From Staphylococcus phage RQ1, in sequence record PV344601.1: a stretch of 64,000 nucleotides of DNA; one strand, given 5' to 3'. The notes under the pieces were generated by a model. That model saw only the letters and a program-made list of their open reading frames with translations, made no database searches and was not told where the DNA came from. A program made the translations under genes and the position numbers. Below, in pieces: positions 33,738 through 36,037 of the stretch (the first letter of the stretch is position 1; the number at the start of each line of letters is the position of its first letter).

Positions 33738-34001
33738 CTATAATTCTACGTTTGGAACCTCTGACTCTGCTTCTGGAACATCTGACGGGTCACTAGGGTC
33801 TAGTGTAGTCGTCGTTGTAGTTGTTGTTCCCTCTGTTGTAGTCGTGGTCGTGGTCGGCTGAGTTGTAGTTGTTGTAGTTGTCGGCTCAGTCGTCGTAGTC
33901 GTAGTAGTTGGAGCAACTGTCGTTGTTGTAGTCGTTGTAGGAGCTACAGTTGTCGTAGTTGTCGTTGTACTACTTGTAGTCGTTGTAGTGGTTGGCTTAG
34001 G
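33738..34001 (-). CDS. +1-frame C-terminal extension of the major tail protein (poly-Thr repeats TTTTTTT(VAP/EP/QP))
   Basis: Frame open through the CCC_UAA stop context of exon 3. Ends PNVEL*. Confidence 0.5.
   Translation of the reverse strand, partial: PKPTTTTTTSSTTTTTTTVAPTTTTTTTVAPTTTTTTTEPTTTTTTTQPTTTTTTTEGTTTTTTTTLDPSDPSDVPEAESEVPNVEL
33800..34000 (-). repeat. ACN-codon tandem repeats encoding the poly-Thr blocks of the major tail protein extension
   Basis: Direct inspection. Confidence 0.8.
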
Positions 34002-34444
34002 GAGTAGTTGTTGTAGTTGTAGTTGAACCGTCCCCAGCAATATTTTCAAACAACGCTTCTAAAGCTGCACGTTTATCTTCACCACGAGCTGTTGCATAAG
34101 TGTTACCATTAGCATCTGCTACGAATTGACCTTCTAATTCATCTGCTTCTGGTTCTGATAATTCGTCTTCATTTGTTGCTAAGTTTTGTTCGTCTAAACG
34201 GAACTTACCTTTTAATAATGCGAAGAAGATAGGTTGACCATCTAATGCTTCTGATTCCATTAAAACACCAGCGTATGGAGGAGTTGTACTTTCCCCAACT
34301 AACATGATGCCATCTTCGTTTTCTTTACGTCCTAATAATTCAGCTGCTAAAGCTTCTGTCATATCAAGAATAGATAATGTAAGTTCTACTGAACCTGTAC
34401 CTTTTTGAGCTACATAATACGCTACGTTTGATGCGTACACTTTT
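33997..34444 (-). CDS. major tail protein, exon 3 (...VYASNVAYYVAQKGTGSVELTLS...TTTTTTTP*)
   Basis: Open frame downstream of group I intron 2. Confidence 0.7.
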
Positions 34445-34750
34445 CATACTCTTCTATAATGTTCGTTACACATTATACGTTTCTTTTAAAAACTGCTATA
34501 CATTTCTGTATAGATGAGACTATATCACAATCCTTTATGAAAAGGATTCCCACTATTTCGATTTAAGGGATTCTCACCCACGCACTTGCGCCCTACTCCT
34601 GTTGACTATTTCAAGTCTAAAAGGATAGTCGTTGAACGTTCTCACAAACGTGAGCTTCGCTGCTGATTAGCATATGACTTATGTCACTTAGCCTTCCAGT
34701 CAATTAAATGGGTTCAGACTAAATATTACTATTTAGCCCCGCTCTAGTGA
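34445..34750 (-). ncRNA. group I intron 2 (ORF-less, about 300 nt) in the major tail protein gene. Boundaries approximate
   Basis: Conserved elements on the minus strand: P AAUUGACUGGAAGG, Q AAUCAGCAGCG, R GUUCAACGACUAUCC, S AAAUAGUCAACAGG. Intron starts AAAUAGUAAUAUUUA, as in Tetrahymena-type introns. Confidence 0.7.
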
Positions 34751-34899
34751 ACGGCTTCGGCACTAAGACCTGAGATACTGGCTTCAGTAGTACCACCTTG
34801 GTTAGCTCTACCTTCTACTACGTGAGTGTTTACTACTGCATCGTCCTTGTCATAAATGAAAAACTTTGCAATATGTTTAAATATAAACGTTACTTTATA
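34751..34899 (-). CDS. major tail protein, exon 2 (...YKVTFIFKHIAKFFIYDKDDAVVNTHVVEGRANQGGTTEASISGLSAEAV)
   Basis: 49-codon open frame without a start codon, flanked by intron elements. Confidence 0.55.
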
Positions 34900-36016
34900 C
34901 TCTCATGTTTATTCATGACACTAGATTTCTCTACGTGTTCAGACTATATGTTAATTTTAGTTCTGATAAATTCTTCGACATTCTTTTCCCAATAAGGAAT
35001 AGTTATTAAGTTAATGTTGTTATTTTTACAATAATCACTTTTTATTTTATCATTAATTTGAGTTTGTTTAAAACTTTCTTTTCCAAAAAGAGAACTTTCT
35101 ATATAGTGTTGACTTCCTTGGTATTCAATCAAAGCAACTAAATTATCATCTTCATTGAATACAGCAAAGTCAAAGGGTAAAACTCTCTTGTTTTTACACT
35201 CTTCTATTCTATACTGTTCTTTATGTTTAATATTATTATCATCTAATATACTTCTAACCAACTGCTCGCCTTTACTAGAAGTTTTACAATTAGGACATCT
35301 TTTACCAAAGAAAAAATTATCTGGAGTAACTTGATATATAAAACCACATTCATTATGAATAATATCAACTTTTGTTTTATTATTTTTATATTCGCTTAGT
35401 AAAGTATATTCTTTTCCCATTAGGTCTAATAATTTTTTCTTAGCTTTACTTCTCTCATTTTTTCTAGTGCACATTTTACATCTTTGACCTCTAGTTTTAA
35501 AATGAGAGGGGCGAACATAATACTCATTGCCACAATTGTGTCTTAGTTTTACGTGTTCGTTCACAGTTTTATACTCTGATAATAACTCATATTCTTTTGT
35601 TTCTTTTACATATTCGGAAAACTCTTTTGATTTTTGTAATCTTCTTTTTTCATTAACACTTGTCATTTTTATCATCCTTTGTTATTTTGTAATTATATCT
35701 TATCATATAATAATAACAAAGTCAACTAAAATCAAGGATTTTTCTTCCACCAATAACTTGTGGCTTTACTCTCCCACTAGGAGATAGTCGTTGAACGTTC
35801 GTCTTATCTCTCGACTTAGACGTTTCGATGCTAAACAGCCATTGTGTGCTACTTAGGTTTCTCATACCTTATAGTATCTGATTATTTTTTTCTGCTTTCG
35901 CAACATTCAAGCCTACCTTTTCAGGTTACTTTGTAGTATAATCAGCTTTAGGCTTTCCAAGCAATTAACCCTTAGCGTATGCCTCTTTTTACATACGGAG
36001 CAAGTTATACTCTTTT
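34900..36016 (-). mobile_element. group I intron 1 (about 1.1 kb) carrying a homing endonuclease ORF. Boundaries approximate
   Basis: P GGUUAAUUGCUUGGAAAGCC, R GUUCAACGACUAUC (18 nt identical to intron 2), S UAGUUGAC. ORF starts directly after P7 inside a stem. Confidence 0.6.
34944..35675 (-). CDS. intron-encoded homing endonuclease, Vsr/DUF559-type, paralog D (duplicated zinc ribbon plus PD-(D/E)xK core)
   Basis: Motif RVLPFDFAVF...ALIEYQGSQHY. Two CxxC...CxxC modules. Confidence 0.7.
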   Translation of the reverse strand: MIKMTSVNEKRRLQKSKEFSEYVKETKEYELLSEYKTVNEHVKLRHNCGNEYYVRPSHFKTRGQRCKMCTRKNERSKAKKKLLDLMGKEYTLLSEYKNNKTKVDIIHNECGFIYQVTPDNFFFGKRCPNCKTSSKGEQLVRSILDDNNIKHKEQYRIEECKNKRVLPFDFAVFNEDDNLVALIEYQGSQHYIESSLFGKESFKQTQINDKIKSDYCKNNNINLITIPYWEKNVEEFIRTKINI

Positions 36017-36037
36017 AAAACCAATTGTACTTGCCAT
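36017..36037 (-). CDS. major tail protein, exon 1 (MASTIGF)
   Basis: Perfect RBS AGGAGG 7 nt upstream of ATG. Frame hits a stop after 10 codons, and intron elements follow. Confidence 0.5.

Follow-up and report, generated by a model that had tools for sequence, protein, structure and literature searches.

Gene orf142 of the Staphylococcus phage Twort, reportedly described by Landthaler and Shub in 1999, is said to be the classical single gene with three group I introns, the second of which (I2) we take to be the crystallised Twort ribozyme (PDB 1Y0Q). The gene (tmpA; GenBank AF132670) is now annotated as tail tube protein. Here, a 64,000-nucleotide stretch from Staphylococcus phage RQ1 (PV344601.1; the window) was analysed, in which the minus-strand gene for the major tail (tube) protein (MTP) very probably consists of three exons split by two group I introns, so that its late transcript would be spliced to the mRNA of a 197-aa tube protein. 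This reading has its direct basis in exon colinearity, a covariance-model match, covariation and homology to established introns.

Like the window, Twort harbours several group I introns of IA2 type within the tail tube gene of a Staphylococcus phage. The second intron of the window (intron 2) shares with Twort the sequences of P7 (CAACGACUAU...GAUAUAGUCU), P7.2, P9 and P9.1 with its GUAACGAA loop, and both window introns end in a stretch resembling AACAUAAUUG of Twort. On the other hand, Twort is a myovirus (Herelleviridae) with a tube protein without sequence homology to the siphovirus MTP; its three introns are devoid of open reading frames (ORFs), while intron 1 of the window possesses a homing endonuclease gene and a long P5 extension; and its 5' exons all end in U, while the exon preceding intron 1 ends in G.

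Outside of the genus Sextaecvirus, intron 2 is closest to lys-I1 of the phage K/Kayvirus lysK gene with I-KsaI and to introns of Quidividi (Mre11) and Terranova (endolysin), the latter two (Sepunavirus) annotated as introns in their records. Identity amounts to 70-76% over 61-90% of the length (by blastn ~76% over 61% for the phage K lysK intron region), and the core and the canonical U·G splice site are the same as in intron 2, whereas the host genes are different and an HNH endonuclease ORF, absent from intron 2, is present in the copies of K and Quidividi. A preceding reading of the DNA without database searches (the sequence-only reading) had noted that group I introns are known in Twort- and K-like staphylococcal phages. 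For intron 1, the comparison leads to Silviavirus phages (Romulus, Remus, SA11, KSAP7/11), whose terminase, portal, helicase, ribonucleotide reductase and repair genes are reported to harbour group I introns, partly together with 'EDxHD' homing endonucleases, and which contain 3-7 copies per genome of elements 76-78% identical to the intron 1 core over 240 nt. The Romulus copy compared agrees with intron 1 in its architecture and in having G at exon position -1, but possesses no ORF and an extra 3' hairpin, and these phages are myoviruses with introns in other genes.

Prophages of the Bacillus cereus group also carry group I introns in tail tube and tape-measure genes (Tourasse and Kolsto, 2008, PMC2504315). 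As in the MTP gene, IA1/IA2 introns occupy several sites per siphovirus-type tail gene (IVS1-3 of the tape-measure gene TMP) with the guide sequence fitted to each site (PMC2504315), although the genus and the tail tube protein are different and at most a few sites per gene are found versus ~10 in the Sextaecvirus MTP. Given the precedents of Twort and the B. cereus group, such elements and even such host genes are already known; what appears to be new is the unannotated intron pair in this MTP gene, the genus-wide intron load and an apparently non-canonical 5' junction. The gene is proposed to be composed as follows (all on the minus strand).

36047-36052, minus strand: ribosome binding site AGGAGG, seen in the sequence, 9 nt ahead of the ATG at 36037
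36010-36037, minus strand: MTP exon 1, 28 nt, coding for MASTIGFKR plus the first base of codon 10, colinear with the MTPs of 6ec, SA2 and PT1-4
34869-36009, minus strand: intron 1, 1141 nt, predicted group I, IA-type, with a homing endonuclease gene in the P8 loop; boundaries by exon colinearity
34751-34868, minus strand: MTP exon 2, 118 nt, codons 10-49, from tblastn against the 6ec MTP and the spliced translation
34445-34750, minus strand: intron 2, 306 nt, no ORF, predicted canonical group I, IA2-type, from Rfam RF00028 and exon comparison
33997-34444, minus strand: MTP exon 3, 445 nt plus the TAA stop at 33999-33997, from tblastn against the 6ec MTP

The uninterrupted MTP of phage 6ec (YP_009042536; 222 aa, beginning with MASTIGFKRATFFIYDKDD) finds by tblastn three colinear pieces in the 64-kb window and nothing more, namely residues 1-9 at 36037-36011, residues 10-49 at 34869-34750 (82% identity) and residues 50-195 at 34443-34006 (87% identity). 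Thus no second MTP homolog is present in the window; a contiguous one elsewhere in the genome had been named by the sequence-only reading as what would refute its proposal. Amino-acid identity across the exons is 82-89% with the frame exactly retained, and the joined exons form a 594-nt ORF without frame break, the 197-aa product of which aligns end to end with the 6ec protein and is colinear with the uninterrupted MTPs of 6ec, SA2 and PT1-4. Matches to Pfam Phage_TTP_1 (1e-16, residues 6-184, across all three exons) and to PHROG 88 'major tail protein' (3e-48) support the assignment of the predicted product as MTP, as previously proposed, with a length of 197 instead of about 205 aa. The remaining elements of that proposal are found at the expected places: AGGAGG at 36052-36047 opens a frame from ATG 36037 that reads MASTIGFKRV and stops after 10 codons, an open frame without start extends over 34899-34751, and the third frame starts only with GTG (ORF at 34440-33997). 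Exons 2 and 3 possess neither a start codon nor a ribosome binding site of their own, no internal start codon was found in the sequence upstream of exon 2, and stop codons abound in all three frames of both intervening segments.

At the nucleotide level (splice positions marked by a slash), junction 1 reads AAAAGAG/CAAAG, equal to intronless AAAAGAGCAAA or AAAAGAGCGAA as compared with PT1-4 and SA2, with the PT1-4 allele, intronless at this position, reading TTTAAAAGAGCAAAATTC; junction 2 reads GAAGCCGT/.../AAAAGTG as compared with 6ec and SA2. Since the intronless alleles define both junctions, the exon and intron coordinates are fixed. In the predicted mRNA, position 36010 would be joined to 34868 and 34751 to 34444, making it ~1447 nt shorter than the genomic DNA; colinear splicing would read TTTAAAAGAG-CAAAGTTT at junction 1 and GAAGCCGT-AAAAGTGTAC at junction 2, while AAAAGAGT-CAAAG at junction 1 would not fit the colinear model. 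The corresponding protein junctions are predicted to be KR-A-KFF (residues 8-13) and AEAV-KVYA (residues 46-53).

Intron 2 is, as judged from its sequence, a canonical group I intron of IA2 type. The Rfam model Intron_gpI (RF00028; curated gathering score 50 bits) matches 34496-34760 on the minus strand over the full model (1-253) with 85.0 bits (E 2.2e-22), a score obtained scanning 421 nt only. Control scans with the same model gave 64-101 bits for introns I1-I3 of Twort orf142 and 88.5 bits for the copy of intron 2 in phage PT1-1. This copy, also present in PT94, is located at the same codon and is 84% identical, with compensatory changes (A-U to G-C) in P2 between intron 2 and PT1-1. The 5' junction GCCGU/UCACUAGAGCGG provides U(-1)·G and three further pairs, which is a canonical 5' splice site. 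The helices (all minus strand), assigned from the Rfam alignment and checked by hand, are listed below; the segment J6/7-P7 reads GUUCAACGACUAU and P7' reads GAUAUAGUCU.

34744-34739, minus strand: GAGCGG, pairing with CCGU/UC in P1, with U(-1)·G
34738-34717, minus strand: P2, GUAA loop
34712-34707 with 34554-34549, minus strand: P3, CCCAUU with AGUGGG
34702-34696 with 34666-34661, minus strand: P4
Minus strand: P5/P5a, found by alignment and inspection
34659-34637, minus strand: P6, in P6/P6a
34624-34598, minus strand: P7.1
34593-34567, minus strand: P7.2
34548-34529, minus strand: P8
Within 34525-34517, minus strand: P7, GACUAU with AUAGUC
34513-34496, minus strand: P9, GAAA loop
34477-34455, minus strand: P9.1, GUAACGAA-type loop
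34445, minus strand: terminal G, the intron ending ...GAGUAUG/

For intron 1, covariation supports the prediction of a group I intron with the full P1-P9.2 fold including the P3/P7 pseudoknot:

36002-35998, minus strand: UGCUC, 3' strand of P1 (internal guide sequence)
35997-35976, minus strand: P2
35971-35967 with 35740-35736, minus strand: P3, GGGUU with AAUCC
~35953-35836, minus strand: extended P5
35827-35796, minus strand: P6
35790-35785 with 34947-34942, minus strand: P7, GACUAU with AUAGUC
35783-35771, minus strand: P7.1
35763-35747, minus strand: P7.2
35735-35724 with 34962-34951, minus strand: P8, UUGAUUUUAGUU with AACUAAAAUUAA
34937-34919, minus strand: P9
34917-34904, minus strand: P9.1
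34899-34882, minus strand: P9.2
34869, minus strand: terminal G, the intron ending ...AAACAUAUUG/

After removal of their ORFs, nine introns of the intron 1 family, taken from various phages and insertion sites, were aligned, and pairs were counted on a hand-built structure of 94 pairs in 20 helices from P1 to P9.2, with pairing partners slid by 1-3 columns as controls. In this alignment, 91.8% of the cells are paired versus 35-42% in the slid controls, 55 of the 94 pairs are altered on both sides, and the covariation score is 0.496 versus at most 0.097 in the slid controls, with none of 500 shuffles attaining the observed values. P8, P5a, P5b, P7.1, P9, P9.1 and P9.2 are rebuilt with differing sequences and P7.1/P7.2 (helices 14-16) covary, while P7 and most of P3/P4 are invariant, as is the terminal G, which aligns with the terminal G of Twort I2 and I3. 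P8 differs in sequence in each family member and the ORF, where present, is always located in the P8 loop. The 5' core of intron 1 (36009-35720) is 76-84% identical to elements in other Sextaecvirus and Silviavirus genomes, and phage vB-SscS-F1 has at the same site (codon 10) a copy without ORF, which matches Intron_gpI with 45.9 bits (E 1.2e-10).

The two introns had been called related, which holds for the catalytic core, as 18 nt are identical in the J6/7-P7 segment (GAACGUUCAACGACUAUC) and the P7' motif is also common; outside of these stretches they are not alignable and, from their sequences, belong to two different subfamilies of phage IA-type introns. In both, P7 is GACUAU/AUAGUC, the same as the P7 sequence of Twort and the putative guanosine-binding helix, and P7.1 and P7.2 are present between P7 and P3', the IA2 criterion; both are predicted to be IA-type, presumably IA2 as judged from P7.1/P7.2. 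All core motifs quoted by the sequence-only reading have been located, including the 18-nt stretch termed R; GGUUAAUUGCUUGGAAAGCC is at position 40 of intron 1 and AAUUGACUGGAAGG and AAUCAGCAGCG are at positions 46 and 83 of intron 2. Its assignment of some of them needs correction, though: of the strings proposed as S, one (UAGUUGAC) terminates the P8 5' strand of intron 1 and the other (AAAUAGUCAAC) is the P7.1 hairpin of intron 2, while the true P7 3' strand is AUAUAGUCU in both introns (34949-34941 in intron 1, 34525-34517 in intron 2), and AAAUAGUAAUAUUUA, proposed as the beginning of intron 2, is the P2 hairpin at intron position 17.

In terms of mechanism, the late transcript would carry the MTP gene as three exons and two group I introns, each of which would adopt the group I core of P3-P8, in which P7 binds guanosine, and excise itself via two transesterifications. 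Intron 2 would act as a ribozyme of IA2 type, small and free of ORFs, with U·G at a canonical 5' splice site and G as its last base, and intron 1 as a ribozyme of the other subfamily, with a long P5 extension, P7.1/P7.2 and P9.1/P9.2. The endonuclease encoded in its P8 loop, apparently with its own promoter and ribosome binding site, would cut intron-less alleles of co-infecting relatives, upon which repair would copy the intron in.

The exon mapping was extended to Sextaecvirus relatives in GenBank and to two contigs from IMG/VR (L038 and L046), with the following occupancy of the MTP gene.

6ec, SA2 and PG-2021_4: no MTP introns
The window: site A (codon 10) and site C (codon 49/50)
PT1-4 (L002, 1726-3530): site B (codon 29/30, with endonuclease)
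PT1-1 (L003, 1474-3832): sites C, D1 (codon 58) and D2 (codon 63/64, with endonuclease); four exons
PT94 (L004): sites C, D1 and D2 as PT1-1, plus E (codon 103)
vB-SscS-F1 (L006, 2940-5128): sites A (no ORF) and F (codon 109, with endonuclease); at least two introns
PMBT8 (L010, MK893987, 2201-7372): sites A, B' (codon 35/36), B'' (codon 43/44), D1, D2 and E
IMGVR_UViG_3300012992_000066 (L038): sites A (codon 10) and D2 (codon 63/64)
IMGVR_UViG_3300009095_000499 (L046, 373-1334): one site near C (codon 49/50)

Approximately ten intron sites, up to six of which are occupied at once and in differing combinations, are thus found in the MTP gene of Sextaecvirus. The extreme is PMBT8 with six introns and seven exons of 28, 76, 26, 42, 18, 119 and 315 nt distributed over 5.2 kb; the spliced models assembled for PMBT8, PT1-1 and PT1-4 give uninterrupted, colinear MTPs. 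The gene of the window is indeed doubly interrupted, but with up to six introns in the relatives and three in Twort this is less unusual than the sequence-only reading had supposed. As the divergent metagenomic contigs L038 and L046 also carry MTP introns, the hotspot reaches beyond cultured Sextaecvirus isolates. None of the MTP introns of the relatives is annotated in GenBank, where the pieces are entered as 'hypothetical proteins' or partial 'major tail protein'; a literature search found no paper on introns in the MTP genes of Sextaecvirus and likewise nothing on introns in SEP9 or PMBT8, and a published table of phage introns includes the Twort tail tube gene and no Sextaecvirus (PMC11878797). 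An essential tail tube gene would accordingly be mis-annotated as fragments in five or more GenBank relatives as well as in the window, and spliced gene models are therefore needed (three exons for the window, four for PT1-1, seven for PMBT8, some as short as 18 nt). The MTP gene, with its ~600 nt, offers a small natural setting in which to study how introns spread and switch sites and how intron and endonuclease co-evolve; in the paralogous endonuclease-bearing introns, the guide sequences have been retuned to each insertion site.

The last exon base of group I introns is normally a U paired with a G of the guide sequence. Such a canonical U(-1) is present in intron 2, the Twort introns, pol-I3 of phage K, the Terranova intron and introns B'' and D1 of PMBT8. 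The intron 1 family, with an otherwise complete group I fold, departs from this U(-1)·G pattern. By exon comparison, the junction of intron 1 is AAAAGAG/UAUAACUUGCUCC, in RNA AAAAGAG/UAUAAC, whereby the exonic GAG lies opposite CUC (G36010 with C35999) and the invariant G of the guide sequence (G36000) has as its partner U36009, the first base of the intron. This G/U arrangement recurs in 11 instances at 8 sites: window A; F1 A; PMBT8 A, B', D2 and E; PT1-1 D2; PT1-4 B; L038 A and D2; and a Romulus head-tail gene. In the alignment of nine family members, the pair at exon position -1 is G-C in all and the next pair U·G in eight and U-A in one; since the guide sequence changes in concert with exon positions -2 and -3, the register of P1 is not in doubt. 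Apparently, the ribozymes of this family, as far as can be told from their sequences, cleave one position 5' of the wobble pair or do something else unconventional; no literature description was found of 5' splicing one nucleotide upstream of the wobble pair. All 11 instances give a functional frame only with this junction, and we are slightly inclined to regard the subfamily as a natural clade with the 5' splice site one nucleotide upstream of the conserved U·G and an exon ending in G paired with C. Candidates for membership are the Sextaecvirus MTP sites A, B, B', D2 and E and at least one Silviavirus intron. A G(-1)/U(+1) junction, if real, would break the near-universal U·G rule and, provided that splicing occurs there, the choice of splice site in these ribozymes would depart from the textbook.

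That intron 1 instead cleaves canonically after the wobble U36009, with a frameshifted product or a 3' join one base downstream, appears unlikely, although P1 looks canonical with U36009 as position -1 (U·G in eight of nine members and pairs 5' of it covarying with the exon) and P10 pairing is best in this register for PT1-1 D2 and PMBT8 B'. Combined with the conserved terminal G, cleavage at the wobble U adds one nucleotide and shifts the frame in every case, with an early stop in the window (AAA AGA GUC AAA GUU UUU CAU UUA UGA). If both sites are moved by one base, the intron's final base would vary between C (in the window, PMBT8 A, PMBT8 E and L038 A), U and G instead of being an invariant G, and PT1-4 would acquire a UAA stop (GGG UAA GCA). 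The intronless relatives show exactly the G/N junction, as PG-2021_4 has KRGTYF, matching the F1 junction in the G/...G/ reading, and Silviavirus St1.CM and others match the predicted junction of the Romulus gene. Among the junctions with a U at -1 tried as general solutions for intron 1, GAGU/...UUG/ was rejected as out of frame, GAGUAU/...UUG/ as giving an extra residue in the window and a stop in F1, with no U there in D2 or B', and GAGU/ with the 3' site shifted by one for its last base C and the stop in PT1-4. The phage K polymerase introns were rejected as possible experimentally mapped members of the family, as they are of a different type with canonical U(-1).

With regard to the three-exon gene as a whole, several observations weigh against it. 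Rfam scans of the whole 64-kb window (gathering thresholds, default filters) and of 2.6 kb (E<=10, permissive filters) gave no Intron_gpI match; nothing is found by this model in the whole intron 1 of the window, its 5' half alone reaches 11.7 bits (E 1.5), and the ORF-less F1 copy lies just under the gathering score. Furthermore, the only in-frame junction of intron 1 has G, not U, at exon position -1, while cleavage at the canonical place shifts the frame, and RNA splicing itself is inferred, as are its autocatalytic nature, the homing and the precise point of 5' cleavage in intron 1. The scan results have an explanation, though. As the control loci matched and the 421-nt scan gave 85 bits, the earlier negatives are filter misses, and negative whole-window Rfam scans should not be taken as absence of group I introns; the absence of a covariance-model hit, which the sequence-only reading had offered as a refutation, indeed occurs in the large scans and would have misled, while the 421-nt scan is positive. 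Intron 1 goes undetected because the 732-nt ORF splits its core, with the P8 5' strand separated from the P8 3' and P7 3' strands. A decayed or fragmented tail gene with an inserted free-standing homing endonuclease, the pieces not being rejoined and the phage being defective or using another tube protein, could be read from the GenBank entries, where annotators kept the pieces of the relatives separate, and from splicing being deduced from sequence. This scenario is nevertheless very improbable, as exons 2 and 3 lack start signals of their own and the window holds no other MTP, the exons are conserved with exact frame while the DNA between them folds as group I ribozymes, and the same architecture recurs in the plaque-isolated phages PMBT8, PT1-1, PT1-4 and F1. 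Removal of the interruptions by inteins or ribosomal bypassing can practically be disregarded; inteins do occur in related Staphylococcus phages (PMC7497331), yet nothing specific speaks for them here, stop codons fill all frames of both segments, intein motifs are absent and both segments match RNA structure models. The split of the gene by two group I introns, the core of the sequence-only reading, is therefore retained, with the Rfam match of intron 2, the covariation of intron 1 and the exon colinearity all pointing to it.

The ORF within intron 1 is a predicted intron-encoded homing endonuclease.

34944-35675, minus strand: homing endonuclease ORF, 243 aa, in the P8 loop, with ATG at 35675
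35697-35725, minus strand: promoter-like TTGACT-17 nt-TAAGAT, TG-extended, from a consensus scan, in the P8 loop just upstream of the endonuclease ORF

An AAGGA precedes the ORF, and an alternative ATG at 35666 is better spaced from it. The last codons of the ORF constitute the P8 3' strand (AACUAAAAUUAA, pairing perfectly with UUGAUUUUAGUU) and thereby place it in the P8 loop, with the TAG stop within P7. The protein contains two treble-clef zinc-ribbon repeats and a C-terminal nuclease domain and matches PHROG 559 'HNH endonuclease' (1.8e-63), PHROG 9084 'homing endonuclease' (5e-28) and PHROG 7140 'intron encoded nuclease'. Pfam DUF2726 and DUF4379 (treble-clef zinc finger) match just under their cut-offs, and with DUF2726 below threshold a PD-(D/E)XK-like/'EDxHD' structural class is at most tentative; no useful PDB match, with the protein alone or a seven-sequence profile, and no NCBIfam match were obtained. 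The ORFs that six other MTP introns carry in this loop encode proteins 36-42% identical to it, and even the site A endonucleases of the window and PMBT8 are only paralogues at this level of identity. The end of the P8 5' strand supplies the -35 element of the promoter-like sequence, TTGAC being kept there in every endonuclease-bearing family member, and the endonuclease ORFs of PMBT8, PT1-1 and PT1-4 are also preceded by TTGAC(A/T), a ~17-nt spacer and a TATAAT-like hexamer. These sequence features suggest that the endonuclease may be transcribed independently of the late tail operon.

Downstream, the end of the MTP gene reads ACT CCC TAA G and an extension follows in the +1 frame.

33738-33998, minus strand: Thr-rich extension, 86 codons, +1 frame (KPTTTTTTSS...LDPSDPSDVPEAESEVPNVEL), accessible through a +1 slip of the ribosome on CCC-UAA at the end of the MTP frame

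CCC-UAA is the slip site of the +1 frameshift that gives rise to gp17.1/gp17.1* of phage SPP1 with an 87-aa extension (PMC6316719), and SA2 and PT1-4 likewise have CCC TAA G together with extensions of 63-72 aa. As this context is conserved and the same as in SPP1, a second, longer (decorated) form of the tail tube protein is likely to be produced by +1 frameshifting. Between the MTP gene and the tape-measure chaperone, a 316-aa ORF (33725-32775, minus strand) belongs to PHROG 4417 (function unknown) and has no Pfam or NCBIfam match. The homologous position is occupied in SA2, PT1-1 and PMBT8, the MTPs of which have Thr-rich C-termini, and 6ec is without both the ORF and the Thr-rich tail; that the 316-aa product might modify the extension is a guess only.

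By megablast of 24 kb around the feature, the late-operon neighbourhood is that of a 6ec-like (Sextaecvirus-type) Staphylococcus siphovirus, with good matches confined to Staphylococcus phages of Sextaecvirus, nearest PT1-4 (82%) and VB-SauS-SA2 (86%).

43485-41782, minus strand: large terminase, 567-aa ORF that looks uninterrupted, at the start of the late operon
Down to 36051, minus strand: portal, protease/scaffold and capsid genes, then four head-tail genes, in the order following the terminase
Downstream of the MTP gene, minus strand: 316-aa ORF, tape-measure chaperone, 2289-aa tape measure protein

Besides those of the MTP introns, no further R/S core motif pair was found in the window. 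In several Sextaecvirus records (S-CoN_Ph4, Ph12 and others), a single match carries the name 'terminase large subunit' two to four times, which points to terminase genes that may be split in some of the relatives.

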